A DNA stretch of 50,018 nt, counting the filler, from Jimgerdemannia flammicorona (Eukaryota), in the NCBI GenBank assembly GCA_003990765.1. It is 2 parts of 2 records of this genome, joined end to end, with 100 filler letters (N's around TTAATTAATTAA, not from the genome) between each part and the next. Parts side by side here need not be neighbours in the genome. Positions count along the whole stretch, not along the records: positions 25,065 to 50,018 come from RBNJ01000899.1; 1 more part is not named here. One strand, written 5' to 3'. Shown here piece by piece: positions 5,334 to 43,950 of this stretch. The translations under genes were made by a program, and so were the position numbers. The notes below the pieces were generated by a model that was not told the origin of the DNA, did not search any database, and was given only the letters and a program-made list of their open reading frames with translations. Positions within the stretch are counted from its first letter, which is position 1, and each line of letters opens with the position of its first letter.

Positions 5334-6986
5334 GTAAGTTTATATTTCATATCTATCCTAACAATTTCCATCATCTACCTCAAATATTTATAGCACACTA
5401 TTGTTACATTTGTTTGACTTATTACCAAACACACATTTTCTAATAGACATAGTACAAGCAAGGGACGGAACGTCTGAAATCGTAGGTAAGGGATACTTTC
5501 TGTATTTTTGAATGAATGTACTCGATTATTTTGGAATACTTAAATAACGGAATAACTTTCAAACGACCTACAGTGCGGAATGAAAATATAAACCACAACA
5601 GCAAAATGATTTACCGTAAACTCAACGACAACGTCCGCATGGAAGGACTTTTCATTGGGCCACAACGGGTCTCGAAGAATTGGACAAACTTCTCAAAGGC
5701 CATGAACGTTATATCACCATCAAAGGATTCGGCGGGATGGGCAAAACATCATTGGCGCTTCAGGTTTTCAATAACTTTAACTCTGGCAGAGCTCTTGCAC
5801 TATCTCTCGCTGGAACACCTAAATCAAGTCAAGTGATCCTGAATATTGCAGAATTTTTTGCTATCGACATTACGGGCTTAAATGATCAAGAACAGCAGTA
5901 TAAAGTGCTTCAAAATATGGAAAGCGACGAGAAAATCTTGCTCTATCTTGGAAATATGGAGGACGTCAAACATGGAATTCAGCGAAAAGACTCAGAAGCA
6001 AAGGCTCTGAAAAAGATTACCCAGAAATGTCAAAATTCTCGCAACATCACGGGTAGCACTTGCTTGGCCTAAAGAACATTTGATCGAACTGGCGGGCATG
6101 GTATTACACGACGGTATGCAGGTTTTTGAACAGTGGATCACACAGCGATTGGAAGAGGTGAATATAGATGACAAAATCAGACAGGAGCTTAGCCGTGTAA
6201 CTGGTGGTCACCCATTGTCACTGCGCCTTCTTGGAAGTATGTATGATAATTGTAATAACCCCATCCAACAATTCATCAAAGACATCGGCAATCTGCTTCC
6301 GGTGGCTGAGAATTGGGAAGCTATTGATGACCGACACGAAACAGTAGACGCCTGCATCAAGTACACCTTTGATTATTTGGACGATATGCTTCAGAAATTC
6401 CTGGGTCAGTCGAGGGAATGGAATGTTCCATTTACATCAACCCTCATCTTCAGGGCTTTGAACCATGACCCTGTTACATCGCCGGTGGCAACCAATTTGC
6501 ACAAACTTTGGCAAAGAAGCTGGCTAAACCGACGAAAATACGAGGTCGACCCAATGCTCGGTGACTGGCGCCCCAACATTATCGAAAATGAATCGGAGTT
6601 TTATAGCCTGCATCCACGCCTACACGACTTTCTCAACCACCACTTTAACAACATTGAGGCCACTCTACCCAACGATGCAGAAATTCAATTTTACACCGCG
6701 CTGTGTTACGGAGTTGGATTTGGTGTTGCAAATATTCTAGCCAAGCAAATTGAGTGGTGCACTAAGGCTGCGGACAACGGACATTTGGAGGCGCAGTTAG
6801 CGCTAGCTGCATCAAGGAGGGTGCTGGGTTAGCCCAGACCCGAAGATGGCATTTAATTTGTACTTGAAGACTGCGGAGGCAGGCAGCAAACAAGCACAAA
6901 GCGAGATCGTAATGTGTTATAGAAAGGGAAAAGGTGTCGAAATCAATGAGGAAAAAGCGACTTATTGGGAGCAAAAGCTTCAGGGT

Positions 6987-7076
6987 GTTGAAGGAAACAA
7001 GATGGCGCCACTTTTAGTTGAAGGAAACAAGACGGCGCCACTTTTAGTTGAAGGAAACAAGACGGCGCCACTTTTG
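6987..7076 (+). repeat. In-frame 30-bp tandem repeat x3 (VEGNK[M/T]APLL)
   Basis: GTTGAAGGAAACAAGAYGGCGCCACTTTTR occurs three times. Confidence 0.95.
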
Positions 7077-7439
7077 ATGAAGTTCGACCTTTCTCTCCCA
7101 CTCATCCATCGCTTGGCATTCGGTGGAGATGCGGCAAGGGTCAGATCACTCTGTAGTGGTCTCAGTGACGTCAGTGTTCGGGACAGAATTGGCAGAACGC
7201 CGCTGTACGTGGCTGCACAGAACGGTCACATTGACGTGATCGAGTGACACGTGTATGAATTTCAGGCAGAGATTTCCCCAAAAGACTTGTATGATGACAC
7301 CACTGCACCTAGCCGCAGAAACCGGTCGCACCGAGCTTTTGTCAACGACTTTGGCGTTGACGTCAATATCAAAAATTATGTCGGAGTAACACCCCTTTAC
7401 AGTGCTGCACGAAAAGGCCACGTCGATATTGTGAGGTTG

Positions 7440-7850
7440 CTCTTGGCCGACTCCAAGGCTGACGCCAAAGCTAAGGACGGCGAGGGATGGACGCCGCTTC
7501 ATTTCGCTTCAAGCGAGGGGCACGTCGAGGTCGTAAAGGTGCTCTTGGCCCACTCCAAGGTGGACCCCAACGCCAAGACCAACGACGGATGGACACCGCT
7601 TCACTGTGCTTCAAGCGAGGGGCACGTCGAAGTCGTAAAGGTGCTCTTGGCCGACTCCAAGGCGGACGCCAACGCCACGGATAACTTGTTGTGGACCCCG
7701 CTTCATCTCGCTGCGCAGAACGGGCACGTCGAGATCGTTGAGGTGCTCTTGGCCGACTCCAAGGTGGACCCCAACGCCAAGACCAACAATGGATCGACGT
7801 CGCTTTACTGGGCTACTTGCAGAGGGCATCCCGAGGTTGTGAGGATGCTG
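7440..7850 (+). repeat. Ankyrin repeats as 102-bp units with high internal DNA identity
   Basis: CTCTTGGCCSACTCCAAGG recurs at 7440, 7542, 7644 and 7746; the translation gives GWTPLHxA...GHVEVVKVLL units. Confidence 0.95.
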
Positions 7851-10161
7851 GAGGCCGGGCGCCAATGCCAAGAAAAATAATGAATCAACTCTGCCTCACT
7901 TCCCCAGGCAGCGCGTCGTAGTTTTGAAGATGGACGATCGAAATGTCTTTACAGGGGCACTAAGCGGAGGATTCATAACTTGAGATTCCTGACCTGGTAG
8001 GGAATTTTGCTGGATAGAGTGTATCAAAACTTGTGCCGTCTGGAGATTTTGTCACCGTCGGGGTAGGAGATAGCGTGGAAAGAATAGAACGAAAGCCAAA
8101 TATATTTTTTAACAAAGAAAAAGAGGTTCTCATAAAAATTCTTTTCAAAAGTTCAAATGATGGTAAGGGAGTGTTGTTTTGGAGTTTCTATTTCGATTCC
8201 ATCATGTCATCTTTGTTTTGTGGAACCCCAAGATAGTTGATCGGCAAGCGCTATGTCGAGATCGCTATCACAGCTTGCGCACACCACGACCGCCATGCTT
8301 CATAGTAATAGATATTACTGACGAAAGCTTTAGAATGGATGGTGGGGTTGGTGTTATAGTTGTCTTGGGTTTGTGTTTAGGGTGCGGCTGATCGTAGAAT
8401 ATAGAATGGATGTTAGGGCAAGGTGCGCCGTGATTGATGGTGTGGTGAATTGGAAGGTGGCATGGCGACAGATAGGGTGATGACAAGCATTTGGGTGGAC
8501 GAAATGAAGGGTGGGAAGCGTGAACTACAAAGTCACCGGATAGAGATAGTAGCTGATCGTATACCCGACCTCCATTCGTTCCCATCCCTCCTACACCATT
8601 GCCCGACCAGATCTGCCGCCAAGCGCCATTGCTATTTTGACAACCCTGTCATAAGAATCTCTGCCTCGTCGCTTGAATGGAATCAGTTAAAGTTTAGTGG
8701 TGAGTGCTTTTATTTTATTTTATTTTTGGAAAGCTCAGAAATAATTTCCAGCCTGGCCCCGCCCAACCCTCTCGGCCCATTCAGGAAGTAATTACATCCC
8801 TTCGCCATTACCTCCGGGACCACTTAACCCTCCACCGCCAACCACGCCAGACCCAAACCTGTCCAACATCCCCGTTGGTAGGGGGGGGGGTATACGTGGT
8901 TTTCAGGTCATGCCGTCCGGACGTCATGCTGTCCTGACGGTGGTCTGCCGGTTTGGCATTGATTTTCTGTTCAAAACATATTATGAAGACGAGGTGGCAA
9001 AAAGAGGAATTGAGTCCATTAGCATCGTTCATAGTAACCATAGCCAAACACCTTAGTATGGCACAGATGTATCAATAAGATGCCAACTTACATTCAAATC
9101 GTGGGGACGTTCTGGTATTAAATTCTAAGTGAACGCATCGCGCAAATAACGACATATGGGACAACAATTAGCAATGTTCGACAGATAGTATATAATAGCC
9201 CAGCCGGGAATATTACGTCGTTCGAGCTTTGCAAGCTGGGCGTTGCAATTATTTTTAACATCCATCATCCTTTCGAAATTCGCCGAACTATACTCTTCTT
9301 TGAACGCCGTTCTGACCTCACTACCCTCACTAAGTGAATTGTATACAACTATTAAAATATCTGTTATACAATGAAATCAATCATGAACTTATTTTTAGAT
9401 ATATATATATTACACCAAGTTTCACATCTAAGCTATGGAATTTTGAGAAATGGTTAAGTCAGCCTCTTATTGTATTTCTTTTTCTTTCTTTGTTTTTTTT
9501 TGAAAAAAAGAAAAAAAAAATAAAAACGTTGATTCTAGTTGGAGGAAACCTTGCATGCCACTGGTAGCATATCTTTAGGAGAGGCCACTTTCAACATGTG
9601 AAGATTTCGTGCATTGCAGAATATGAAATAGATTGACAATAACCTTGAAACACAATAATATAATACTGACAACCAGCAAAGCAAGACATGCACTAAGTGC
9701 AAGACCATCAATACAGACAATGGCCATATCATTATAGCTGAGTTTTCCTTTATGGAGGTGGTGTTGCCCTTCAGGCTAAGACCACAGTAAGATTGCACAT
9801 CCAGTTTAGTATATAAATATACCATTGTTTGGTTTCTGGATTTAAATATTTACTTGAATAATTTATAATGAAGCTATTAACCCATTAGGGTTTTGCAAAA
9901 AGGAATAGAAGAAATATATTGTAACGGTGACCCCAGAATGATGACATCAGCACAGGAGACAGCCTTTCCTTACAAGCCACCAGATTGGAGCACAAGAAGA
10001 TCATACAGCATATGAGATGAGCAATGATGACCAACTGTAAGTCATTGTGATCACTGCACAAGTATCCTGAAGAATATAAAAGAAGGATCAAGGAACTGCA
10101 GTAGCAGCAACCAACAAGAACCACCAATCCCAAAATAGCTCAAAGACTTACCATAAACGAA

Positions 10162-12826: not shown

Positions 12827-12939
12827 CAGTTGAGAGTAGGACTTGCAACTACCATCAAGAATTAAGAGTACAAGATTGTAGAAGCTCACAATGCACAAGA
12901 AGAATCTGAGAACTCAGGTAAAGAATCCAAAGACTAGTG

Positions 12940-15900
12940 CAAGACATCAGCCTATACCCTCTGTCAGATTGAAGACTGTATCTTTGATGTCATCATTGAT
13001 ACTAGTGCTGGAGGATGCCTCATGAGCAAGAAGGCAATTGACTGCCTAGGTTGGGACATTGAAGAGTCTACTAAGATGGTCTATGTTACAGCAGATGGTA
13101 CACGAGCTACCCCTATTGGCAAAATCCGAGAAGTCCCCATTAAGATAGGAGGAGCTACCATTCCAGTAGATATGATTGTTACAAGTACCACCAACTATGA
13201 CATCATCATTGGCAACCAATGGCTTCACAAGGCCAAGACCATCATTGACCTCAATGCCCAGAAGATGCAGATCAACTACAGAGGAAGAAAGGTATGAGTT
13301 TCTATCAATGTCCACAAAGGAGTCCTGCCTGACATAGAGGAAGGAGATGAAGAAGACACAGAGGTCTTCATGCACTTGGTGAACAAGAGCAAGAACAAGA
13401 CACCTAAGCTCACAGATGAGCAGTGGTATAACAAGATCATCAATAGATATGCCCCTCAAGGAAGATGCCCTCATGGTACTAGAATGTACTGCTCCAAACA
13501 CCTGAATGACTGCTGGTCCTGTATCAGTGAAGTCAGGAAAATCTGCTAACAGAAACATGAGCAAGAAGCTACTGAAGCAAAAAGGAAAGCTGAAGAAGAT
13601 GACCAGCCCCCAGAGCTTCAAGCTGACAGTGACAATGAGGAGGAACAAGAATCAGACATCACCCTCAAGGTCAAGAAGATTCACCCTGAAGCTAAGATCC
13701 CAGAATACAAGACTGAAGGAGCCATAGGAATGGACCTTGCCAGCATCCAAGATGCTATCCTTGAACCACAGACCACCACCCTACTTGGCACTGGAATTGG
13801 AGTCAAGTTGCCAGAAAACCATACTGGAATTATCAAGACCAGGAGCAGTCTGGCCAAAAGCGAAATCTCAGTTGAAGGAGGAGTAATTGACCCTGATTAC
13901 ACTGGTGAGATTTTTCTCATAGTCAGAAATTACAACCACACCACCCCCTTCAAAGTCAAGAAGCATGACAGGATTGGCCAGATGCTGATCCACGAAATCA
14001 AGAAGCCCAAGATCATAGAAGCCACTGAACTTATCAAGACCAAGTGAGGAGAACAAGGCTTTGGATCTACTGGAAGAGGAGCCTATGTCACCACCAAGAT
14101 TACTGAACTTGAGCACAAGAAAGACAAGGACCAGAACAAGCACATATATACCATTGGAGAAAAATTTCCCCTGGAGGAACAACTTCTCAAGATCCTGTAC
14201 CAGAATGAAGGAGTACTTGCTACAGACTTTAGAGATATCCACAATCAAGAACCCAAGTACTACTATGAAGTTGACACTGGTGATACCAAGCCTATCTACC
14301 AGAAAGCCAGACTGATACCACCTGCCTACAGAGAGTGGCTGCAAGCCGAACTCAAGGAAATGGAAGAAGCTGGAATCATCAAGCAAGCTATCAGCCCCTG
14401 GGCCTCACCCATTGTCCTCACCCCAAAGAAAGGAAGCAAGCCTGGAGAGTTTGCACTAAGACTCTGCATCAACTACAGGAAACTCAATGCCATCACCAAG
14501 AAGGATAGGCAGCCCATACCAAATATTCAAGAAATCCTTACCACCCTTGGAAGCGAAGCCAAATACTACACCATTTTGGATCTGTTCTCAGACTTCCATC
14601 AGATCAGTCTCACTCAAGATGCCAGTGAGAAATCGGCCTTTATCACACCTGATACCACCTATACCTATCTGCGAATGACATTTGGAATGTGCAATGCCCC
14701 AGCAAGTTTCCATCAAATGATGAACAAAGTCTTCAGCAATGAGATTGGAAAATGGCTCTTTGTCTATATTGATGATGTGATCATCTTCAGCAACACTGCA
14801 TGGGAACATGTCAATTACATACAGCTAACCCTCAAGAGGCTCAAGGAGCATAGCCTCTATATCAAGCCCAAGAAATGTAAGTTTGCAGCTCAATAAATCA
14901 CCTACCTAGGACACCTCATCAACCAGACTGGAATCCACACAGACCCCATGAAGATCGAGGCTGTTGCAGCCTACCCAAGACCCAGAAAAACTACAGAAGT
15001 CCATGCCTTCCTTGGACTGGCCAGCTACTACAGAAGATTCATCAAAGGATACTCCAACATTGCAGCATCTATCTATGAGCTACTGAAGAAGGAGACCAAA
15101 TTCGAATGGACCACGGAGCACCAAGAAACCTTCAATGAACTCAAGACCAGGTTGACCCAAGCACCCATCCTCAGAAGACCAGACTGGAACCTAGAATGCA
15201 TCCTGCAGACAGATACAAGTGCCATAGGACTTGGAGCAGTTCTAGCTCAGAAGAAAGATGGATATGAATATGTTATCTCCTATGCAAGCTGAGGTACCCA
15301 CGGAGCAGAACAGAACTATGAGTCATGCAAGCTTGAATGCTTAGTAGTAGTTTGGGCAGTAGACAAGTTCCACTACTACCTAGCTGGAAAATGCTTCACC
15401 ATTCAAACGGACCATTCTGCTCTTGCCTGGCTATTCCACACTTGGAACCCCAAAGGAATATATGCTAGATAGATCTACAGGCTGCAAGAGTATGACTGTA
15501 CTGTCAAGCACCACTCAGGAAAGACCAACACCAATGCCGATGCACTCTCAAGGACACCCCGAAACACCCCCATCAAGACTACTCAACATGAATAAGGAGC
15601 CATACTATGGATTAATCAGCTACCTTGGGCAGCAGAAGATACCCAACCACCTTGAACTCTGGACAATCACCATCATCAACCGACTTGGAAACAGTTTGAA
15701 TTAGACAACACTATACTCAGAAAAGGAGGAAAGCTAGTAATATCTGAATACAAGAAGTATCAAGTAATGAAGGAAGTACATGAGCAAGGACACTTAGGAG
15801 GAACCAACATATACGACAAGGCAAGAAGAGCCATGTGGTGGTCCAAGATGGAAGAAGACCTGCACCAATTTGTCAAAAGGTGTGACAAGTGCCAAAAACA

Positions 15901-16800
15901 GAAATAAGATCAGCAAGACCAGGTACCCAGATCATCAAGAATTGAGCCTATCCCCTTCCACCACATCACAATGGATATCATTGGACCACTACCAGTAACA
16001 CTATCAGGAAACTACTATATTATAGTTATCATAGACCTCTTCACCAAATGGATAGAGGCAGGAGCATTACAAGAAGCCAATGCCCTCTCTATAGCTGACT
16101 TCCTATACCGAGAAATCATCTGCCACTACAAGACACCAAAGCAAATCACAACAGACTGTGGTACAGAATTTGTCAATGGATTCTACGAGATAATATATCA
16201 GAAATACAAGATCCAGTACATCAAGACCACTGCATACCACCCTCAAGGAAATGGACAGACAGAGAGAACCAAAAAGACCCTCAAGAACATTCTAGCAAAA
16301 ATCTCAGAGACATATGAGAATTGGGATAACTATCTCCCAACTGCCCTCTCTGTTCTATGAGACATATGGTCACAGAGCACACATTTTACCCCAAGAGAGC
16401 TGCTCTTCAGAGAAGAAGATTCTGATGGAACCTCAGCTACAAATCTAGACCTAACTTGGAGGTGGGTTGATGCAGAAATCTGGAGACTACACCAAATCAG
16501 GAAGAAGGCTGAAGATTATATCACCAAGTCACAAGTGCTGATAAGGAAGAATGCAGAAAAGAATCACAAGACCCTAGAACCCATCTGGATTGGAGAAAAG
16601 ATTCTACTGTATCAAAATATGGTAGAAGCCTCATGGTCATAAAAACTGGAGCCCAAATGGGAAGGATCCTTCTATATGTAAGATATCAAGGGAACTATCT
16701 TCTGGCTTAGAAAAATCTCAGGGACCATACTGCCTACCATGGTACATAGGAACAGACTCAAAAAGTATCATGAACCTATATAAGAGAAGCAAAACATGAT
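12940..16800 (+). pseudogene. pol: Pol: aspartic protease, dUTPase, RT, RNase H, integrase
   Basis: IIDTSAG (PR); SPWASPIVL, LRLCINYRKLN, MTFGMCNAP, YIDD (RT); LQTDTSAIGLGAVL (RH); HEQGHLG..CDKCQK, MDIIGPLP, TDCGTEF, HPQGNGQTER (IN). Multiple stops. Confidence 0.95.
13660..14075 (+). pseudogene. dut: Retroelement dUTPase domain (between PR and RT)
   Basis: GMDL, TRSSLA, GGVIDPDYTGEI, DRIGQM, (R)GEQGFGSTG motifs. Confidence 0.95.
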
Positions 16801-25064: not shown

Positions 25065-26136
25065 AAAAAAAAAAAAAAAAAAGAGAAAGTAGCTCTCTTA
25101 ATATCTAAGTACTGTCTGTTATACTTTTAATTAATCTAGTCTCCTTCTGACAGACTTGGATAATAATTTGACAATTATAGACTTTAATTCTTTAAAGTCT
25201 AAGTTCTTTAGTATATCTTTTTTAGATATAGTCTAATTCTGAGAATTATATTTAGATTTTTCAGAGTTCAAGTATTTATAGAGTTCAGGATATCTAATTT
25301 TAGATATAGTCTTCTTATTGGAGATTATTCTGGGACTTATTTATATATTATAAACTTAAGTCTTTAATTGTTCTTTTTATTCAATATTCTGTAAATTCTA
25401 AATGTTCTTAAGTCATTTCTAGAGGTATTTATACATTTTGAAGATCTCTCAATATTAACTAACTATTGGCTAAAAGATATAAGATAAAAAGTTACTAGAA
25501 ATAATATAAAGTTACACCATAATAATATTATTATAAAGTCATAATAATGTTATTTAATAATATCATTTTTATATATAAACTATAAAGTAATTATTCTGAG
25601 ACTTATAATATAGTATTTTATTATATTATATAATAATAATAGACTTCTGTGAAAGGGGTTAAGATCTCTCTTAGAGGTTTGAATTTAGATGATATAATAC
25701 TAGACTTTTCAGAGTCTAGTTCTGATCTTGTGATCTTAGATAATAATATAGACTAGTGAGACCAGTCTCATATTAGCTAGTATAGAAAATTCTTGTGACC
25801 AGATATTTATAGATATCTGGACCTAAGAAATAGATACTTGGAATATATAGACTAATAAGTCTATTAAAGATATTATTCTCACATATAGTATTCTAAATAG
25901 ATTCAATTTATCTAAATGAGATTCAATTTAGATTCATTATATAGGGCATACTGTAATAAAACCAGACAAAGTAAACTTTTGATGTTACTCACTTTTGCTC
26001 ACCCCTTCCTACAACCTTTCAATTATTCAATACCCATCATACATAATAATTACAACAAGCAAGCTGAAATATAACCTACAATTCTTTCTTTATTATTATC
26101 TCTTGCTACTTTTTTTTTTTTCATAAAAAAAGTATT

Positions 26137-27784: not shown

Positions 27785-29968
27785 TTACTCAATGACATTT
27801 AATACTGGCTTGAGACAAGTAATATCTTTAAATTCATCTTGAACAAAGGGGCGAATATTATGATAGAGATATTTCTGACATTTCAATTTCATAGGAAAAG
27901 GCTTAAGAACTAGAAATGACATAGCTTTAATACTCTCTATGATCTTGGAAGTCTCTAATTTACTAGTTTTCAGTAATTTGAATTCCTGGAAAAGGCTACT
28001 TATGACTTCTTGGGCTTTGATTATCCCAGGATTAGCACTGGTGAAAAGAAAATATTGAAACTTTTGCAGGTCAGGTAATTTTTTAAAATAAGTTTCTAGG
28101 CTACTTATGATGTTATAATATTGAAAACCTTCATCACCATTATAACGTCGAGCTTTGTTTAGTCTAGTGATGCTAAACCTTTTTACCATATTAACAACAT
28201 GATCTATACAATCTACTGTTGTTTTGCAATAAAGCCTTTTGATTAATCTGAAGCTACCATCACACTTGAATTTGATATAGTCTGGAACCATGAAGTTCAA
28301 TTCAATACTTTCATAATAACTACTTATTACCAAATATAAGTAAAACCAAAGAGTGGTATTGTTTTTGTTTTGTCCATTCACATTGTCACAAGTGATTTTT
28401 AAGTGCTTTTTACCTTTATTCAACTGCTTAATCCCATCAAAGACTAGACTAAGCATACCATTCAGACCTTTCCTAAGAAGTTCATTCTCATCTAGTATAT
28501 AATTAATTTGCTTATAGACCACTTCATCTTAGATACCAAATAAGTGCACTTTGTAAGCACTAAAATAATACACCTTGCCGATCTATTGATCTGAATAAGG
28601 TACATGGACATTTTGAGCTCAATTATAACTATAATGGGCCACTGTGCCAATGCTGTAGTATGGTGCTTTGTCTTTCAGTACAGAATAATTTTGGTCAGTG
28701 AGTTTTCTTTGCTCTTCTGCCAACTTGGTATTTTTGTTATAATAATTTCTCTCTAGTTTGGCTTTGGCCAGATACTCTTTATATTTCTTTAATAAATCTT
28801 GGGCCTCTTTTTCTTTATGAGCTTTGAACTGTAAGTCATTTTGCAAATACTAGTAAGTATTATATAAATCGGTCCTCGGACTCATGATTTGAATATACGG
28901 GGTTATGTAACTGGTGCCATAATTTATAGAATGTATCATACTTGAGATTATGCAATTTATTATTATTCTCCAGGCTGGCTAAAAAATCCCAGTAAACAGA
29001 TCTGTAGCTCATTTCTGCCAGTAGAAAGATAATTGATAGGGTGACTTGATTAACATTTCTTACTGGGCTAGGTAAGCCATGAACTTCAGTATAATTTAGC
29101 AAAAAATTCTTGATAGCAGTAGCAATATCAATATTGATAACCATTCTGGATTTTCACTGTGGCATTCTTTTTACATTACTATGAACCTATGGTAGAAGAC
29201 CATTCTTTAACAAATGATTTCGAATGTTTTCAAAATAATTGTGACCAATGCCAAGTATATTGAGATAAGTTTTTTGGCAAATTGGAGTGCTACAATTTCA
29301 GTAGTAAATAGTTCTATTATTGACATGAGCTTTCTTTTTAAGATGGTGGCTAGTATTGGTCACTCCTCCATCCATAGTCTTGAGTTGGGCCATTAAAAAA
29401 ATATCTTGTTTGAGTTTTGTTAGCATTTAAAAATCTTCTTGCAGTTTGGCAAATTCTTCCTTGAGCAACTTGGGTGAACAACTGCAACTACATTCTACTC
29501 TCAGAAAATAGAGAGCTTTTTCATATTCATTTATAATTATGTCATCTACTATATATATATATTTTATATATATTATGCACAGTTTGTCTGGTTTTGTTAA
29601 ATTTCTTTTCAGTATACATTAAAATATATAAGAATACCCCTATATATGATACCTGTAATATTCTACTCTTCAGAGGTTTTTCTTTTTTTTCTAAACTCTT
29701 GGGATGTTTCTGGTAATTCTTGCTTCTTAGAGTTTAATTCCTGCTGACTTCATCCAAAAATATCTTCTTGATGAGCAGTATTTATACTTTTATTAGAATT
29801 ATTAGAATTGACATATAGTTGTTGGTAAATTTCGTAGGTAATTCTCTCTTTATCCAAATATTCTTGAATAACTTTGGTGTCAGATAATTTAAAAACATAA
29901 GGAGCAATTTTCTCGCCTTGCTCTTGTTTCAAAATGCTTCTGATCGCACTATAGTTTTTGGGTTCCAT
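27785..29968 (-). mobile_element. Sola-like DDD transposase pseudogene
   Basis: AHYSYN*AQNVHVP, ITCDNVNGQNKNN, FMVPDYIKFKCDGSFRLIK (decayed GHTKF.CD..FGLIK), EVHGLPSP. Terminal inverted repeats not established. Confidence 0.7.
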
Positions 29969-32925: not shown

Positions 32926-33449
32926 GCGAGTAATGACAGCAAGATGAAGAGCTGGACTTTTTTTTACTACAGTCTGAGGGTTTCTATCCCCTATATATAA
33001 AAAGGAAGAATTAACTGGATGTTGTCCATTTTAATAGATTTCTAAGCCAGGGCTCTCAGGACTTAATAAAGAGTAGACATTTTCTAGTATTATCTAACAA
33101 TATGAGGTTCTGGACCAAGAGTTCACCTAACTATATGCTTGTATTACATTAGGATATATCAGGCATAACATTTATCTATCTATATATATAGATAACAATA
33201 TCACTCTGATAATGTTTTATATTCTGAAAAGAAAGAACTCAACTAATGTATTGATTCTAATTAGTTCTGATCCAGTAGAACTCTTTATAGTCACTACTAA
33301 TATCTCAAACATTATTATTAGAGCTATTCTAACTCAATACAAATACTCTATTACCTATCTATCTTAGAAACTTAATGAATATGAAAAAAAAAACTATACT
33401 ATATAAAATAAAAAACTCTTTATAATCATCTGATTTAGTACTCTGAATG

Positions 33450-33745
33450 AGTCGATTCGAATCAAATTCAGATTTGATTCATCACATGATGGTTTGATCT
33501 GAATCTCAAATCCAAAGCCATTTGAATCAACTCGGATTAATCTGAATCACCCATCTGAACCACCCCAATCCGAATCACTTAATCTGAATCACTCAATCTG
33601 AATCACTCAATCCAAATCACTCAATTCGAATCACTCAATCTGAATCCTCCAATTCAAATCCTCCAATTCAAATTCTCTAATTTGAATTCTTCAATCTGAA
33701 TCTTCATCCAAATCCTTCAACTGAATCCTCTAATCCAAATTCTCC
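33450..33745 (+). repeat. ~14-bp tandem array (GAATCACTCAATCY), probably subterminal to the hAT element
   Basis: More than 15 degenerate copies lie upstream of the transposase start. Confidence 0.85.
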
Positions 33746-33850
33746 ACATGACTCATATGCTGGATATGTCCACAATACAATATATATATATATATGCATA
33801 CACAATATACATACATACATATATATGCATATACAAACACATAAATACAC

Positions 33851-36421
33851 ATGTCAACAGATCAGTCTTCAATAGTTCACAGTACTGATGATGCTTCAAG
33901 TCAAATATCTCTAATAGTTCCACACCTTCTATACAATTCTCACTCTGAAATCTGACAACATTGTGCTAAGATAGGAGATGATGTTGTTTGTAATTATTGC
34001 AGGTAAAAAATTAAGATGCACCTATTGACACTTTTTGTTTTGACATACACATGATATTATTTCATCCACCTCCATAAACTGTACCAGCCAGAAGTTCAAA
34101 ATGCTTAGTGGTATAACTTTGAACATAAATCAATACATAAAAGACAAGCACTCTGACAAAATCAAAAAGAATACAGAGATAAATAAAATTGACATCCAAG
34201 CTATAGTGGGTATATTTATCTGATTATCTGACTATTTCTATACCAACAATACCATTTAATCAAAAATATTTAGCCATACTCTTCAGCAGAATTTCAAAAT
34301 TAGCTCATTTGCTAGATTGTGTACACAGACCAGCCATTTACAACCATCGAGAGTGATCAATTGCATAGTATCTTTGGCCTCCTCAAGTATGATTTATATT
34401 TGCCAAGTACCAATACTATTCGCAAAGATGTCCTGGAGGCCTATAGGAAGGAGTACAACAATCTCTGCCAAATACTTCAGGTAAAATAAAGGTAGCACCA
34501 TGACTTTTGCAAACCGAATTATATAAAAGAGCTCACCAATTTAACCTCACATTCAATAAGCAGAATTTGGCAGGCAAAATTTCATTTACGATTGACACAT
34601 AGATATCCCCCAATGCAATTTCATTTCTGAGCATTACCAGTCATTAGATTGACCTTGATTGATAGCTTAAATCTCTCACCCTTGACTTCATCAAACTTAC
34701 TGGCCCTCATTCTGGAGACAATATTGCAGATACTTTTATTAGTTGTATCTGGGAGCTTGGGATCACAACCAAGGTAAAAAAGGAGGACTTGCCATTAGGT
34801 CAGCATTTTGAGAGAGGTCCTAAAACAACTCAGATTTTATTGATTATTTATTTTCGCATAAATTTGTCAACTGAATATTTCAAGTACAGATTTTGGCCAT
34901 TATAATAAACAATGCTACAAACAACTCAACATTTTTCAAAGTTTTAGCAGCCAGTCTCAAATAGAAAAATATAGCCTTCAGTACAGAAAGCTGTCATGTA
35001 TGATGCTAGGCCCATGTACTGAATCTCACTGTTCAGAACTATCTTATGTATATAGACAAAATATCCAAGAGAGAAGGGGCCCTGAGTATAATTTCCAAGC
35101 TGTGCAAACTGGTTATATCAGTCTGATCATCCCCACAATGACGAGACAAATTCACTATACAGTGTAGAGCAATCAATTTAATTCCAAAAGAGCTTATATT
35201 GGATGTCTGTATATGTTGAAACTCAACATTTGCAATGATTCAGCATGTGCTGGAGTTTGCTGTGGTATGCATTCTTTTTTTCTTCGGTTGGCTGAAGCAA
35301 CTTATTTCAGATAATTGAAGATTTATTTTTAAAAAAAAAAAAAACAAAAAAAGCCAATAAATTCAACAGTGGCTACTGATAAGGAAATACAGGCCAAGGC
35401 TCTAGGTGAAAGTAAGTGGGATGTACTTAGGAATGTTGTCAGAGTTTTGGAAGTAAGTGGTGATTGCTCTGGCTCTATACTCATTTTGTCTGCCTCCATA
35501 TGATATAATATCTCACTACATATAACTGCCAGTGTTTTGACGATTGTACAAAGGATATAGTCAAACAAATGACTCTGACAATAAGCTTGGCAATATCAGC
35601 ATACAACCTTCTGATTGACCAGCTAGAGAATAAGCTTGAGGATAGGCTGAAGGGTTGTGGTGATTTATGGTTGAGCTTGGATCAGAGAGATACCATGGAG
35701 GTTACTCTTAGTAAGCTCAGAAAGTACTACTCCCAAACAGATACTGCTGTATACTCAATTAGTACAGGTATGTCAATATCAGCATGTGGCCATTGCCCCT
35801 TCCAAAATAGAGAAACTCTTGCAAAAACTCACTCTTTTCTTTTCTTCAAATAGTGCTGGACCAATGCTTAAAGCTACAATATCATAAAGATCAGGACTGG
35901 GAGCAGTACTTCATTGAGAGAACCAAGCAGGCTGTAATTGAAGTGTACCAGAAAAACTATATGCCACCATAAGGTTCTGGCCAAAGTCCAGACAAATATG
36001 CTAAGGGATCTCTCCTGTTCCACATTTACTTCTGCAGAAAGAGGAAGAGGGAGCCATTAGTAAAAGAGTTGCTATCAATAGATGAACTTATCATTTACCT
36101 TGCCAGTGACTGCATGATCCTGCTGGAGGGCATGGAGGTACTCAACTGGTGGAAGGTGGGTTGTCAGGTGGGCATTGGGCCAATTTAACCCATCAATCTA
36201 ACTACTGCTCTACTCACTGGAGCATGTAGCTGTGTCAAACAAACTTCCCCAGTCTGTGTGGCATGACTTGGGACTACCTGGCAATTCCTGCCTCCAGTAC
36301 TCCTGTTGAGTGGGTGTTCTCAGGTAAGGTGGACCTCATTGCCCCAAAGAGGTGTGTGCTGAATACTGAGACAATCCAGGCATGTATGTATCTGAAGTCT
36401 TGGTGGGGCTCAGGCCACTAA
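33851..36421 (+). mobile_element. hAT transposase pseudogene (BED finger, DDE, dimerisation domain), intron-containing
   Basis: VVCNYC; KISFTIDT*ISPN..FLSITSH; GPHSGDNIA; C*AHVLNLTVQ; ILDVCIC*NSTFAM; DYLAIPASSTPVEWVFS..ETIQACMYLKSW. Confidence 0.92.
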
Positions 36422-36539: not shown

Positions 36540-37300
36540 CTAAGTAGGCAGTGGTCAGTGGGGTTGGTGGTAGCAGTGAAGAGAGCATGCAATGTTTGTG
36601 GCTCTCTGCTAGCAGCAAGGGGCAGCCCCAAGCTATCAGTATCCAGACAGGTCAGTGGGTGGGCATGGAGTTGGCAGAGGGAGTGCATAAAATTTGTGGC
36701 CCTCCACTGGTAGCAAGAGGCAGCCCCAAGCTGCAAGTGTCCCAGTCAGGGGAGTTAACAGAGGGGGGGTTGGTGGAGGGAGGGTTGGCAGAGGGGGGGT
36801 TGACAGAGGGGGGGTTGGTGGAGGGGAGGTTGGCGGAGAGAGCATACAAAACTTGTAGTCCTCTGCCAGCAGTAAGGGGCAGCCCCAAGCTATCAGTGCC
36901 TGGGTCAGTGGGCAGGGTTGGTCAGTGGGGTTAGTGGGTGTGGGGTCAGCAGAGAGAGCATGCAAAATTTGTAGCCCTCTACTGGTAGCAAGGGGCAGCC
37001 CCAAGCCACAAGTATCCAGGATGGGCAGAGCAGGTGAAGGGAGCATGCAAAATTTATAGTTCTCCACTAGCAGTAAGGGACAGCCCCAAGCTGTTAGTGC
37101 TCAGGTCAGTAGGTGGGGTCAGTCAGCAGGGTTGGTGGGTGTGGGATCAGTGAGGGAGTGTGCAAAATTTGCAGCTCTCTGCTGGCAGCAAGAGGTAGCC
37201 CCAAGCCACAAGTATCTGGGACAGACAGAGTAGGTGGAGGGAGTGCACAAAATTTGTAGCCCTCTACCAGCAGTATAGGGGCAGCCCTAAGCTGCCAAGG
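36540..37300 (+). repeat. Higher-order tandem repeat: 7 copies of a ~43-bp core with alternating spacers, plus 15-bp G-rich units
   Basis: AAATTTGTAGCCCTCTRCYRGYAGYAAGGGGCAGCCCCAAGC recurs near 36590, 36690, 36850, 36965, 37050, 37165 and 37250. Confidence 0.85.
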
Positions 37301-37609
37301 AGTCTAGGGTGGAGAGTGCTTCTAGTAGTTAGAGGGTGCTTCTGATAGTCAGAGGGCATTTCTAGTAGTTGGAGAGTACTTCTGGCAGTTGAAGTCCACC
37401 ACAGATTTGGGTCCCGCCACTGGTTCAGATCTCATGAGCACCCTGGCCCTGTACTGTAGCACTGCATTGGCAGCACTACAAAGCAGAGCCAAGGGGTCAG
37501 TAGGGTCCTGCATAACAGCTAAGCTAGTGCTACAGAAGAGGCACCTGGCCCAACCCCTATATAAGACTGCCCAATCTACACAAAATAACTGCCTAACCCT
37601 CACAAAAGA

Positions 37610-38900
37610 CTACCTATCCCTTGCAAAAGATTGCCTAATCCTTATAAAAACTGCTCCACCCACCAGTCCCAGGCCTTGATGAGCCTATCATCTGTTATAA
37701 GTGTGACAACTATTATGTCTGAGCTCTCCTTAAAGGCGACAGTGCCATGGTGGTCATGTGGTTAGAAGAGGATGGCTGTGTTGGCTGCAAATGGGACCCC
37801 GAAACCATAGGTGAGATTGTACCAGACTCCTCCACTATCCTTCCAGATTGAGCCCTTCCTTTCTGAGATATAAAACATTACTGGGGTGACATTGTTGTCT
37901 GTATGTGTGGGCAGAGAAACATTGTACCTGATATATCCTGATGTGATATGAGCATACAGTTGGGTGAACCCTTGGTCTAGGACCTCATACTGCTAGGCTG
38001 TGCTGGTGGATGCCTGCCCTTGGTCCAGCCCCAAGAGCTCTAGCTTGAAAATCTGCTAAAACAGATGGCAACCAGTCAGTCCTTTTTGTGTGCAGAGAGA
38101 CAGAAACCCCCCAGGCCACAGAAATCCCCTGGACCACAGAAACCCCCAGGCTGTAGCACCCCAAAAAAGTGGAGCTCCTCACCTCATACAGTATGCTAAA
38201 TTGTGCTAAGAATGTATGTACAGCTGCACCAAGATCACCACCAAGCTGGTCTGCTATACACTCTACCAATCTGCTCAAAGAACCCCAGATCATAGCCACC
38301 ATTATCACACAGACCGTATCATGCTTGTGCGCAGTTTGCTCTTCAATAGCACTTCTAAAGTTCTGGTAGGGGTACAGAATCTTGTATATCCCTGAAATTG
38401 TATTAAAAAGAGTATGTTGGTGAAGAGTGTAATTTATCTGGGGAGGAGAAAAAAAAAAAAGAGAGATAAGTGCAGGGGATTTTGGAACTCTGGAACCCAC
38501 CCTTTGCCAGGGTTGAAGTATACCCAATTCCTATCCAAACCCCCCCTCCTTGCTTTTTTCGCCCCCTCTTTTCTGCCATCCAGTATTTGACACAATTCTC
38601 GCAAATCTCATTGATGTAGCAGCAAAGCTCATCACTGTAGAGGTTCCTTACCACCATTACAACCACCTCTCCATGTTCATTAATAAAGATATGGTTCTCT
38701 CTGTCATTGGTTACTTCTGCTGGCCAATGGACCCCTTGGTTGAGAACAATTAGCTCTAATTCGAATGTAGACCCCCAAGCCTTAGTGATGATACTAGTAC
38801 TGCTCATGCTGAACATCTTGCTCTCAAATTTCTCTATTTGATCAGATGCCAGATATGGTTGAACTTGGGTAACTTTGAACTCTCCTTTCCAATGGAACTG
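37610..38900 (-). pseudogene. TET/JBP-like 2OG-Fe(II) dioxygenase, multi-exon, disabled
   Basis: TSGYIRYNVSLPT-HTD-NN...GGVWYNLTYGFGVPFAANTAILF*PHDH-HGT: an HxD (37897-37905) and distal His (37741-37749) triad in a DSBH-like pattern. An upstream exon reads GGVWIGIGY. Confidence 0.6.
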
Positions 38901-38929
38901 AGCCCTGATCTGAGGGACTGAGATAAGTA

Positions 38930-39010
38930 TACAGATGGGTTATGTGTGGATAGGTTGCATGTGGATGGGTTGCATGTGAGTGAGTTGCATGTAGGCAGGT
39001 TGCATGTGGG
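38930..39010 (+). repeat. 14-bp tandem repeat (GGTTGCATGTGGAT) x~5
   Basis: Directly visible. Confidence 0.8.
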
Positions 39011-39319
39011 TGTGGGTGTTTTTTTAGAAGGAGACTATGTAAAAAATGAAATTAAATAAAACACAAAGATGAGTATTTCAGAAAAAGAGCATGAGTGAGT
39101 GAGTGAGTGAGCTGCAAGCCAATAAGTTATATACTGATGAGTTGCATGAGTTGCACAAGATTACTCATGAAGGCTTGCTTCTGTTCCTTTTGAGACCTCT
39201 GCCATACAATGTATTAACTCAACAGCTCAGTCACCAAAGGCATGCTCCACAATATCCTCCAACCTTTCTTCATCTTGATCAGATGTTGCAAATAAAGTTG
39301 GCAGATCTTGCCATAGAGC

Positions 39320-41188
39320 TGTAAGAGGGTTGCTATTTAAGATAACTGTTACATAGTTCTGGAAGGGTTTTCTGGAAGTTCTAGATGTTCTGGAAGACCG
39401 TTTTCTTATGGTCAAGATCAATTTCATATGGAGTATGTCCTCTACGCTTATTGATTTCAAGATCGGGTTGACATCTCAACCAAAGTCCTTTTCTCAGACT
39501 AGTTCTGGGTTTTCAGGATTTTCCATATTTCAGGAAGTTCAAGAAACTAAGACCAGTTTAGTTGAATTGGCATATCACTGCAGACAATACCTAAGTAGGA
39601 ATTTTTGTGACAGAGTTAGGAGTGGGACCTAACAGAGAGCAGATTTACTTAAGAGTGGTTTGTGGGTTATTAAATAGGTTTATTCGCTATTTATGATATT
39701 GCTATACTAGGAGTTGTTGTGTGAAGGGATATTGTGGAGAAGTGCTCAGGAGTTGTGTTTGGAATGTTCAAGTGTTCAAGTCTGAGATTCTGAGGTCTGG
39801 GGGAGGGGGTATTTATACTAGTGAGGGGCTATCTGGACTATACTTGATATAGATGTAGCACTAAGTGCTTTGCTGAGTTGGAATGCAGTCACATAGTACA
39901 AGTGTGATCTGATATGTCAAGAGATTGTCTGACTGCTGAGTCAGTTCACAGTCACATCATATAAGGCTAATCTAACTATACTATGACTGCTTAGGCTATT
40001 TATGGTTTAGGCATAGTCTGGGTAGTCCTCGATGACATTACCATCGATTGCATCATCTCTGATAAAGTAGTTATCTAGGAAGAGTAGTTTGCGGATTACT
40101 TCTCCTTGTTCACTGAGATAATAATACATTGGAACTTTGTCTCCATCCCACAAGATGGCATCATCAGTCTCATATGCTGGATAAGGTGTTGGTGGGTGAA
40201 GGAGGGGTGCATCATCTTCACTTTCATTGGATTCGCTGTCTGTATACCTTCTGTAGGTTACAGCACTATGAGTCGTAGGGTTATAGTAAGTGGGGGGCTG
40301 TGGTTCATGTCACTCATACTCAGATAGTGGAGTGGTTGGTTCAATCTCAAGGGTTGTCTGGAGGTACAGGTTGTGTTCTCCGGTTTCTTCATTGTAGTTG
40401 AAGTAATTAGGGGTAAAGGCGGGTTGGTATTCATACCAGTGGTCATTGTCCCAATAAGTCTCATATGCTATTATGAATTGTTATAAGTTCATTGGCAAGG
40501 TTGGCAGTATGATCAGGGTTGGCAGAGATCCTTGGCTAGAGGTCATGTCAGCATCAGAGGGATCATTGTCTTCTGCTTCATCTTCATCGAAGTGGATTAT
40601 ATCATAGATGTCCTTCATGGCATATCCAACTTGGGGCATTTGCAGGATGTGATCATTGGGGTGTGAGAAGGTTCTGTCTGTGGTTTTGATGTACTTGAGG
40701 TACTTGTGGTTGAGTTCTTGTATCATGTTGTTGATTTGGCCATAGGACAGGGTGGCAACCATTTCAGCTGTGGTAACTCAGAGGTGGGGAATAATGGTGC
40801 TATACTCATAAAAGAGTTCTCGATGTTTGTAGGCAATAAGCTTCTGATGTTGAGACATCTGGGTTATGTCTATATCATAGTAGTGTTTGATCATGTCTTC
40901 CAGGAGGTGGCCGATCTGGTAGTAGCTTGAGATTTGTCTGATTCGGTGGGCCTCGCTAAGCATGTTCAGAGCATTCCATCGGGCTTCTACAAAGTAGAGG
41001 GGTGCTAGGCTATGGATATTCATGAGGGGCAGAGGGGGTGTAGCTCAGTTGATAATGGCATTCCAAATGTCAGCATGGATATGGGTATAGATCTCGGTAG
41101 TCATATTTGTATGTTTTAGAAGTTGTAGTTGTTATTTGTTTTTGGTTCTCTGATTTGATGTATCTCAGTGCTCGGTATATATGCATTT
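39320..41188 (-). mobile_element. Family-2 LTR copy lacking ~200 bp of its 5' end; contains the LTR ORF at 40007-41104
   Basis: Reverse complement of ~44480-46328; ends CTCTTACA. Confidence 0.93.
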
Positions 41189-41925
41189 TGTAAGAGGGTT
41201 ACTTTTTAGGGTAGCCGTTACGTAGTTCTAGAAGGTTTTCTAGAAGTTCTGAATATTCTGGAAGACCGTTTTCTTATGGTCAAGATCAATTTTGTATGGA
41301 GTATGTCCTCTACGCTTATTGATTTCAAGATCGGGTTGACGTCTCAACCAAAGTCCTTTTCCGGACTAGTTCTGGATGTTCAGGATTTTCCGTATTTCAG
41401 GAAGTTCAAGAAACTAAGACCAGCTTAGTTGAATTGGCGTATCGCTGCAGATAATACCCAATTAGGAAATTTCGTGATGGGGTTAGGAGTAGGACCTAAC
41501 AGGGAGCAGATTTACTTAAGAGTAGTTTGTGGGTTATGGAATAGGTTTATTTGCTATTCATGATATTGCTATACTAGGAGTACTTGTGTGAAGGGGTATT
41601 GTGGGGAAGTGCTCAGGAGTTGTGTTCGGATTGTTCAAGTCTGTTCGAGTCTGAGATTCTGAGGTCTGGGGGAGGGGGTATTTATACTAGTGAGGGGCTA
41701 TCTGGACTATGCTAGATATGGATATAGCACTAAGTGCCTTGCTGAGTCGGAATGCAGTCACGTAGTATAAGTGTGATCTGACATGTCAAGAGATCATCTG
41801 ACTGCTGAGTCAGTTCACAGTCATGTCGTATAAGGCTAATCTAACTATATTATGACTGCTAGACTATTTATAGGTTTAGGTACTGTCTGGTTAGTCTTTG
41901 ATGACATCACTATTGATGACATTAT
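41189..41925 (-). mobile_element. Family-2 LTR 3' fragment, tandem to the previous copy
   Basis: Repeats 39320-40060 (TGTAAGAGGG...). Confidence 0.92.
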
Positions 41926-43544
41926 CACTAGCAAAGTCTGAGCAGTTTTCTGACTTCTGACATCATCAGTTTTCAAGATGTCGTCACTTCTATCTCTTGT
42001 AAGATTAAGACTATCCTTGGTGGCGGTGGTTGTACAAGAATAACAGGTCTTGGTTCTCTTTTTTTTTAGTCTGCTGGTGCATTTGCGAGGACTGGCCATT
42101 CTCGTCTAGGGCGAGGGCTCCCAATGTCGCGGCTGGGGGTTCGAATCTCTCAGAAATGATATTTTCTGTAATCCGAGGCAATTTCTAGTAGTAATATCTG
42201 TCACATGGATGGCTTGAGATTGGTTTCGATGTTGTCGGCTTTCTTGAGTTCAGATGAAGTATCCATCACTCTCCAACGGAGGTAGATGTACTTCCATCAG
42301 AACAGAATACACCTATACAGTAATAAACAGCTATCTATCAAGCCCTTACTCCAGACTCACAACTACTACTCCAGCAACTTACACAGACTCAAAGAACACC
42401 CTCACACTCTGCACCAGTACCTCAAGTAGTACCAGTAACATCACAACCAGCAGTCCAACCACCTCCAGTAAACAATATAGCAAACCAACAGATTTTAGAC
42501 CTTACAGCCTAGGTAGCGATAATGGCAACAACCATTACTGCCTTAGCCAAACAGACTCAACCTACCAAAAATCTGAGCCTACCTACCTTCAATGGTACTG
42601 CACAAGAAGTCCAAAGCTTTATTAGTGTAGTTGATACCAACTTTGAAGCCAATCAATGGACCAATGAGCGAGTTGCTGACTACATTCTGATAAATAATCA
42701 AGACCACACTCTGGAACAACTCTTTGCTACCACTACAGCCTATGTCTGCTGAGTTGTTACATTCTTCCAAGGACCTGCCGAAGAATGGTGGTGAACCCTT
42801 CCTGAAAAATCCCTCACATGAGATACCTGACCTGTAGTAGTTGCTCAGAATGCAGCAAACAATGTCCCAGGATATGGAGCCCATCCTGCAGCCCCTGGAC
42901 TCAAACAACTCATGATTGCTCAATACCACAATGAAACCATGATTGCTGAATCTCGAGTAAAACTCCACAACCTCAAATTTGATATACATGGCAAAGAAGA
43001 ATTTGAAACCTTCTGTACAAAACTCAAGTCACTCCTGAACACTGTTGGCCTAGGATATATTGCCAATGATGAAGTATGAAATGGTACAAGAGCAGACCAT
43101 TTATTTGATATACTGCCTGAATGGCTTATGAGAAAAATCCATAAACAAGGCCACTCAGTCAGTTGTGATCACCAACAATGATACCTAGTAAGAATCAAGA
43201 CTATGGTCAAGTGAATCCTAATAGCTGGACCAATTCTACCCTAAAGACAATTCAACAACAAGGAAAATACTTGGACCAAGAAAGAAGAACCCAAGCATGA
43301 AGCATCCCAAACTCCCTCCACATCCACTTCTTGGACACTCAGAAATCATGAATCCATACAGCTGAGTACCTTCAAGAAACTCACTGAAGGCAAAAGAAAT
43401 GAACTTCAAAGAAGTGGAGCATACTTCTATTGCTGAAAGACAGAACACATAGCCAGTACCTGCCCCAACTGAAAACTCTGAACAGCAATATGAGCAACTG
43501 TTATCACTCTGCACCACCTCAATAACCTGACCACCAGAATACTG

Positions 43545-43950
43545 GACTTTGTCAAGTTAAGGCAAACTGCCAAGGCCCAACCAAAGGAAGTCAAAAAGCA
43601 GCTGGATATGACCTATATGCAGCCAAAGAAGCTATAGTTTCCAACCGAGAAGTCAAGCAAGTCTACACAGGAATCAGTATCCAAATTCCTGAAGGATATG
43701 TTAGAAGAATATACTGTCACAGCAGTCTAGCATTGAAAGGACTCTCAGTAGAAGGAGGAGTTATTGATGAGGATTATACAGGCAAAATTATTGTCCTCAT
43801 CTGAAACCACAGTTGGACACTCTTCAAGATCCCTATTGATTTCTATATTGCCCAGATTTTATTCAAAAAAATCAAATCAACCCTGATAGTCAAGGAAGTC
43901 CCTGAACTACTGCCCACCATCTGAGGATCCAAAGGATTTGGCTCATCAAA
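43545..43950 (+). pseudogene. dut: Retroelement dUTPase domain (between gag and PR)
   Basis: AAGYDLYA, SSLALKG, GGVIDEDYTGKI, IAQI, *GSKGFGSS. Confidence 0.93.

Follow-up and report, generated by a model that had tools for sequence, protein, structure and literature searches.

What gene lies hidden in the CpG-depleted repeat DNA at positions 37645-38939 (minus strand) of a 50,018-nucleotide stretch of the Jimgerdemannia flammicorona assembly GCA_003990765.1, and did it once serve a transposon against its host? The window, by which we mean this whole stretch, joins parts of two records end to end through 100 filler letters, with positions 25,065 to 50,018 coming from RBNJ01000899.1. We read the locus as a dead copy of a hAT-associated, spliced and multicopy gene from a rare, unannotated family of 2-oxoglutarate (2OG)- and Fe(II)-dependent dioxygenases that is TET-like in kind and whose intact copies would counteract silencing, and we assign this reading a probability of about 0.65. 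We consider a relationship of this family with the PE-type TET-like enzymes of published fungal transposons most probable.

On the minus strand, three collinear coding pieces in three frames make up the remnant of a three-exon gene. Its parts are given below, where L001 denotes a metagenome locus that carries a relative, and protein relatives are numbered from P0001.

38501-38939, minus strand: exon A, the N-terminal half, frame open (open reading frame (ORF) 38403-38939; tblastn)
38392-38500, minus strand: intron 1, 109 nt, GTGGGT...TTTCAG, phase 1 (L001 intron at the same position and phase)
38183-38391, minus strand: exon B, the helical middle part (IYKILYPYQNFRS...AQFSILYE), frame open (tblastn to P0003 and P0008)
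38056-38182, minus strand: intron 2, 127 nt, GTGAGG...TTTTAG, phase 0 (L001 intron at the same position and phase)
37645-38055, minus strand: exon C, the catalytic half (translation, tblastn, phmmer)
37993-37995, minus strand: in-frame stop TAG in exon C (translation)
37897-37905, minus strand: HTD motif in exon C (translation)
37804-37833, minus strand: GGVWYNLTYG motif in exon C (translation)
37762-37764, minus strand: in-frame stop TAA in exon C (translation)
37741-37752, minus strand: HHGT motif in exon C (translation)
37681-37695, minus strand: TDDRL with the conserved Arg, exon C (translation)
37642-37644, minus strand: natural stop TAA of the gene (translation)

Exon C translates (38055-37645) as SLPTHTDNNVTPV, followed further on by GGVWYNLTYGFGV and then by ILF, a stop and PHDHHGTV, the catalytic stretch reading SLPTHTDNNVTPVMFYISERKGSIWKDSGGVWYNLTYGFGVPFAANTAILF, the stop and PHDHHGTVAF. 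The preliminary description, made from the sequence alone, had pointed to a catalytic-looking exon absent from the ORF track and reading HTD...GGVWYNLTYG...HHGT, and this is what the frame contains; the exon is missing from the track because two in-frame stops split it, leaving a longest open piece of 76 aa. Exon A contains the strand GEVVVMVVRN and the Gly-rich KRGRKKQGGGVWIGIGYT, and matches residues 92-167 of P0003, a full-length relative of 374 aa, as well as exon 2 of L001 (tblastn, E 1.6e-11). Both P0003 and a further relative, P0008, are collinear with all three window exons in tblastn. Intron 2 has an alternative acceptor 3 nt further on. Since both intron positions and phases are common to the window gene and L001, whose lineage is only 37-39% identical to exon C, we conclude that the gene is old and genuinely spliced. 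Contigs of a soil-metagenome DNA run (X1, described below) contained no exon joints over the gene, and no RNA run containing the sequence was listed; a search for a start codon or an upstream first exon gave noise only. Intact family members would encode a protein of ~370 aa.

We found the locus to be heavily decayed. For the gene, the ratio of observed to expected CpG (CpG o/e) is 0.11, and for the neighboring transposase 0.09, compared to 0.93-1.0 in gene-like stretches of the window (2.4-8 kb and 30-32.9 kb), confirming that a CpG-depleted gene sits in CpG-depleted repeat DNA, and the TpG o/e over the gene is 1.59. Copy-specific C-to-T changes fall in the contexts CpA (16), CpC (11) and CpG (8). 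Classical repeat-induced point mutation was rejected, with a TpA/ApT index of 0.81 and a (CpA+TpG)/(ApC+GpT) index of 1.50 over the gene.

Other copies of the gene show what the window copy has lost. We used X1, the only DNA run listed, which contains 0.06 of the sampled words and may include the window's own organism. Across 37600-39000 it yielded 333 contig pieces at an identity of at least 80% (30 at 99% or above, 48 at 95-99%, 136 at 90-95% and 119 below 90%), with a single place covered by up to 20 different contigs. Because so many differing contigs lie on the gene, it must be multicopy in the X1 sample, in line with what its CpG depletion had been taken to suggest at the outset. A second, more decayed copy of part of the gene lies in the window itself:

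32978-33244, plus strand: second exon C fragment, in opposite orientation (71% DNA identity; 64% protein identity over 47 aa)

In this fragment, the HTD has decayed to IYID and several stops interrupt the frame. Comparing the window with the X1 contigs, we found transitions at 169 of 178 differing places. Of the 40 differences with the best support, 35 are T or A in the window and C or G in the contigs, and these 35 include the two stop codons: at position 37994, nine contigs carry C, which turns the TAG into TGG (Trp), and at position 37764, fourteen carry G, which turns the TAA into CAA (Gln). In P0001, the closest intact relative, W and Q stand at the same two positions. As the contigs and P0001 thus read sense at both sites, the stops are private C:G-to-T:A changes of the window copy. 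The idea that a working counter-silencing enzyme is encoded here is not supported: with two nonsense mutations and no start codon identified, the window copy makes no enzyme.

The family to which the gene belongs is nearly absent from protein databases, presumably because repeat masking hides it. A phmmer search of exon C against 1.84 billion representatives returned seven matches, five of which are true relatives (P0001-P0005), the other two being long repetitive bacterial proteins (E 4e-5 and 3e-4). P0001 (136 aa) is 77% identical to exon C by phmmer (E 1.6e-56) and 76% identical over 131 aa by tblastn (E 9e-67); P0008 was added by a word-index search using P0003. A profile search with alignment A2 (E up to 10) in a set of 5.8 billion proteins returned only P0003 and P0001, and tblastn of phage records with P0003 as the query yielded 10 matches, all at chance level (E 7-9). 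A metagenome scan yielded two loci, L001 and L002, both of the P0004 lineage. These lie on contigs of different metagenomes and carry near-identical genes within the same flanks, the L001 gene being open and that of L002 having stops in two exons. Their DNA is AT-rich (GC 0.34) with a CpG o/e of 1.21, so that their host seemingly lacks CpG depletion at the locus.

Within the family, the catalytic-looking residues are strongly conserved. In a nine-row alignment whose lineages are 23-53% identical to P0001, the first His of HxD is invariant, as are F, Q, T, V, G, G, Y, Y, G, V, N and F, including a Gly-Gly...Tyr...Tyr-Gly...Val...Asn...Phe block. HxD occurs in seven of the nine rows, HxN in the decayed P0004 and P0005, and HxE in none. 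All eight rows that reach the position of the distal His (HG[TS]) have this residue, P0005 ending earlier, and an Arg follows it after 17-21 residues in the window, P0001, P0002, P0003 and P0008. Because HTD and HHGT are conserved across lineages this divergent, they do not represent a chance pattern.

Which kind of dioxygenase the family represents was approached through language-model and structural neighbors. Among the 30 clusters nearest to P0003 by language-model features, 12 belong to PF12851 (Tet_JBP), 6 to PF20515 (2OG-FeII_Oxy_6, Tet-like) and 12 to no family, and no other family occurs. P0001, sharing 30% identity with P0003, likewise has just two named families among its neighbors: PF20515 (72% of the cluster, score 0.91, 178 shared features), in a cluster named Tet-like 2OG-Fe(II) oxygenase, and PF12851 (score 0.88). 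The tool rates such neighbor evidence as a lead. The ESM Atlas holds its own model of P0001, with a predicted local distance difference test score (pLDDT) of 0.69 and a predicted template-modeling score of 0.59. Eight of the ten structural neighbors shown bear a 2OG-Fe(II)-oxygenase family or name and two lack a family, at template-modeling (TM) scores of 0.54-0.63. The types represented are Tet_JBP (28% of one cluster, TM 0.61), prolyl 4-hydroxylase, 2OG-FeII_Oxy_3, Oxy_5 and HIF prolyl hydroxylase. At the level of predicted models, these neighbors would support a 2OG-oxygenase fold, without separating TET enzymes from hydroxylases.

The closest published comparison is provided by the PE-type TET/JBP-like dioxygenases that Kojima 2025 (Biology 14:1741, PMC12730594) described on fungal DNA transposons, seven rows of which (Agaricus, Gymnopus, two species of Tuber, Morchella and Ascobolus; Table S1 of PMC12730594) we compared with our family by eye. 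The domain has a similar length (~270 aa) and, as read by eye, contains eight blocks in the same order, from the N-terminal strand to the last one: GE[IV]V.MV.RN as a strand, R...G...SAG, a helix with R at its end, [IL]PR[ML]D, F.F, N[YF]..R..H.[ED], GG.F[FY]...[HY]G[IF].[IV]....N....[WF].....HGT and [LM]S[FI]V...RL. The likeness is closest at the GEVVVMVVRN of the window, which stands beside a near-identical Tuber strand. Both groups are associated with DNA transposons, are spliced and are too divergent for the Pfam Tet_JBP profile. The TET nature of the PE type was itself argued from structure comparison, with structural e-values below 1e-5 against CMD1, NgTET and CcTET and an HHpred E of 1.4 only (PMC12730594). 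The two groups differ in their carriers, as PMC12730594 lists no hAT carrier for the PE type.

Further TET-type systems can be compared with the family. As set out in PMC12730594, the TET-bearing hAT7 transposons of Puccinia likewise combine a fungal hAT element with a second, TET/JBP-like dioxygenase gene, but their enzymes are of the PU type (motifs R.WGG.MW.IGWRK, H.D..D, HCT and R.G.S.Q), which by eye is only loosely alike, and hAT7 is defined by 7-bp target-site duplications (TSDs), which cannot be read at the window locus. With CcTET, NgTET, CMD1 and human TET2, the family shares the His-x-Asp...His pattern and a presumed double-stranded beta-helix, but it has no Cys-rich or CXXC part and gives no PDB sequence match to them (E up to 10). 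The CcTET residues for N6-methyladenine (6mA), Gly331 and Asp337, could not be aligned to it.

A decayed hAT transposase faces the gene, and the preliminary description was right to call the two convergent. The elements around them are as follows.

33539-33750, strand not assigned: 14-nt tandem repeat (AATCTGAATCACTC)n upstream of the transposase (repeat comparison)
33900-36421, plus strand: decayed hAT transposase with stops and frameshifts over all three frames (PF05699 match)
36230-36421, plus strand: hAT C-terminal dimerization domain (Dimer_Tnp_hAT, PF05699; Pfam E 6e-11, 42.4 bits, cutoff 21.4)
36540-37400, strand not assigned: spacer of tandem repeats between the converging genes (degenerate units of ~100-200 nt and 15-nt G-rich repeats)
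38936-39012, strand not assigned: 15-nt tandem repeat just upstream of exon A, where the X1 contig cover fades

The two genes lie tail to tail, with 1.2 kb between the end of the transposase and the 3' end of the dioxygenase-like gene; the longest open piece of the transposase is 114 aa. Blocks upstream of the dimerization domain were read by eye as hAT-like; they are full of stops, several at Trp codons, and gave no further Pfam match. The spacer of ~0.9 kb holds a conserved 17-nt core (AGGGGCAGCCCCAAGCT) in seven copies and has a GC content of 0.55 and a CpG o/e of 0.02. The 15-nt repeat may be a subterminal repeat of the element, and the 14-nt repeat may be the other. One X1 contig runs past 38941 with a CpG-rich form of the 15-nt repeat (GCGGGCGGGTTGCG...) where the window has GGGTTGCATGTGGAT, and in this single contig the decay of CpG to TpG and CpA in the window copy becomes visible. 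Elements of the hAT superfamily have short terminal inverted repeats (TIRs) with an 8-bp TSD (7 bp for hAT7) on either side. Two scans of left ends against right ends gave no convincing TIR pair or TSD; the ends of the element have probably decayed, and the placement of gene and transposase in one element cannot, for this reason, be shown from the window. Most likely, both belong to the same hAT-type DNA transposon; the carrier would be a hAT, not one of the Kyakuja/Dileera/Zisupton or Plavaka elements named in the preliminary description.

Several observations weigh against our reading, in addition to the lack of a TIR pair and TSD. Searching Pfam with the window exons and P0001-P0005 at E up to 10, we found no match to Tet_JBP (PF12851), PF20515 or any other 2OG family, and PHROGs and NCBIfam searches of the family returned nothing beyond chance level. 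A PDB sequence search (E up to 10) gave one chance antibody match (E 0.63). AlphaFold2 models of P0003 (seven rows) and P0001 (nine rows) had mean pLDDT values of 38.0 and 36.7, unusable for fold comparison. The TM values of TET and prolyl-hydroxylase types among the Atlas neighbors are alike, leaving the two unseparated, and the Atlas tool names no family for the aligned parts; P0003 had an Atlas recognition value of 2142, below the bar for a strong score. The likeness to the PE type was judged by eye, without a computed alignment score, and the HxD of the window family differs from the HxE that replaces HxD as the hallmark of the PE type (PMC12730594, section 3.4). The Arg after the distal His is absent from P0004 and the L001/L002 lineage, CpG at L001 is normal (o/e 1.21), and no hAT domain was found within 1.7 kb downstream of the L001 gene. 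The initial proposal of a TET/JBP-like dioxygenase stands in part: a hidden gene of the 2OG-Fe(II)-dioxygenase type with an HxD...H pattern is supported, and the language-model neighbors, the mixed 2OG-oxygenase neighbors in the Atlas and the collinearity with the PE type by eye point indirectly to a TET/JBP-like nature.

The same evidence bears on the possibility that a transposon captured some other 2OG-Fe(II) oxygenase, of the prolyl-4-hydroxylase or 2OG-FeII_Oxy_3/5 type, that acts on a protein or small molecule and has nothing to do with DNA methylation. The missing Tet_JBP and PF20515 matches would fit this, as would the hydroxylase clusters near P0001, which score as well as the Tet_JBP cluster. 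No Pfam hydroxylase family matches either, however, and PF20515 and PF12851 are the sole named feature neighbors of two members that share only 30% identity; moreover, the whole domain, including its N-terminal half, is collinear by eye with the PE-type rows compared. We regard a captured hydroxylase as unlikely.

Granted an enzyme of the TET/JBP superfamily, its chemistry or purpose could still be another one: 6mA demethylation, JBP-like thymine hydroxylation, CMD1-like glyceryl transfer to 5-methylcytosine (5mC) or repair of alkylated bases, and it may serve transposition or DNA marking and not the escape from 5mC silencing. The last strand of the family (S/A-x-S/T-V/T...R) seems reminiscent of AlkB as well. 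Section 3.4 of PMC12730594 allows for further activities of the PU and PE types and notes that CcTET oxidizes 6mA too. The carrier DNA, however, bears the mark of CpG methylation, with a CpG o/e of ~0.1 in repeats against ~1 in genes, which makes 5mC the obvious target, and none of our data favor another substrate; a different chemistry or purpose seems to us slightly less likely again than a captured hydroxylase. We consider it very unlikely that gene and transposase are two separate decayed repeats brought side by side by chance, with the gene stemming from another element or from a former host gene. The absent TIRs and TSD, the 0.9-kb tandem-repeat block between the two, the exon C fragment at 32978-33244 without a transposase of its own and the L001 copy without an adjoining hAT domain would all agree with such a chance neighborhood, but both genes have lost CpG to an equal degree.

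The remainder of the window contains further mobile and gene-like sequences. Next to the dioxygenase gene, a little past its 5' side, lie two direct repeats at 39320-39991 and 41189-41860 (~670 nt, 82-95% identical, spacing ~1868 nt). The 1.2 kb that they enclose contains minus-strand ORFs (88-100 aa) but matches no Pfam family; the whole (39320-41860) could represent a small LTR-like or other terminal-repeat element or a tandem duplication. A decayed Ty3/gypsy-type retrotransposon at 12938-16357 (plus strand) has a dUTPase domain (E 3.6e-24) between its protease and reverse transcriptase, a second dUTPase piece lies at 43526-43801 (plus strand; E 1.9e-19), and both dUTPase regions are CpG-depleted. 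At 27788-28528 (minus strand), in very AT-rich DNA (GC ~0.29), a 247-aa open frame matches Pfam DUF7869 (E 3e-10) and may belong to a further DNA transposon. The gene-like sequence at 5620-7877 (plus strand), where CpG is normal, combines an NB-ARC-like P-loop (E 1.4e-4), a trace of Sel1 and strong ankyrin repeats (E 4e-50), which is an NLR-like architecture. At 1001-2000, GC is extremely low (0.158), next to DNA with a CpG o/e of 0.02.

Taken as a TET-like gene of a hAT transposon, the locus suggests the following course of events, in which the anti-silencing role is drawn from analogy and from the trace of CpG loss that the carrier DNA bears. The intact enzyme would use Fe(II), 2-oxoglutarate and O2 to oxidize 5mC, and possibly 6mA, on DNA; oxidation of 5mC would strip the methyl mark of the host from the transposon and thereby keep the element expressed. 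In the window copy, on this reading, the host won: after methylation at CpG, the element lost nearly all of its CpGs and, through transitions, many other C:G pairs, and two nonsense codons arose in the catalytic exon. What the window copy displays is only the losing end of such a conflict, methylated, deaminated and stopped, and its value lies in being one more dated copy and not a source of enzyme.

Where a transposon's own defense against silencing by DNA methylation is sought, TET-like genes carried on transposons are the clearest candidates, and to our knowledge none of them has been functionally tested. A 2026 review (PMC13297926) names only Basidiomycota and Pezizomycetes as sources of such TET cargo, and our search of the literature for JBP-type dioxygenase cargo in hAT elements or in Mucoromycota yielded nothing beyond Kojima 2025 and this review, which cites it. 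While the general kind was thus published in 2025, the pairing of a hAT carrier with a PE-like enzyme that keeps HxD is new. Tentatively, and at somewhat less than even odds, we suggest that the family constitutes a fourth, as yet undescribed clade of TET-like dioxygenases carried by transposons. It would be sister to the PE type, would have kept HxD and would have been taken up by a hAT element in a fungus that does not belong to the published groups. If so, the capture of DNA demethylases by transposons would be older or more widespread in fungi than reported.
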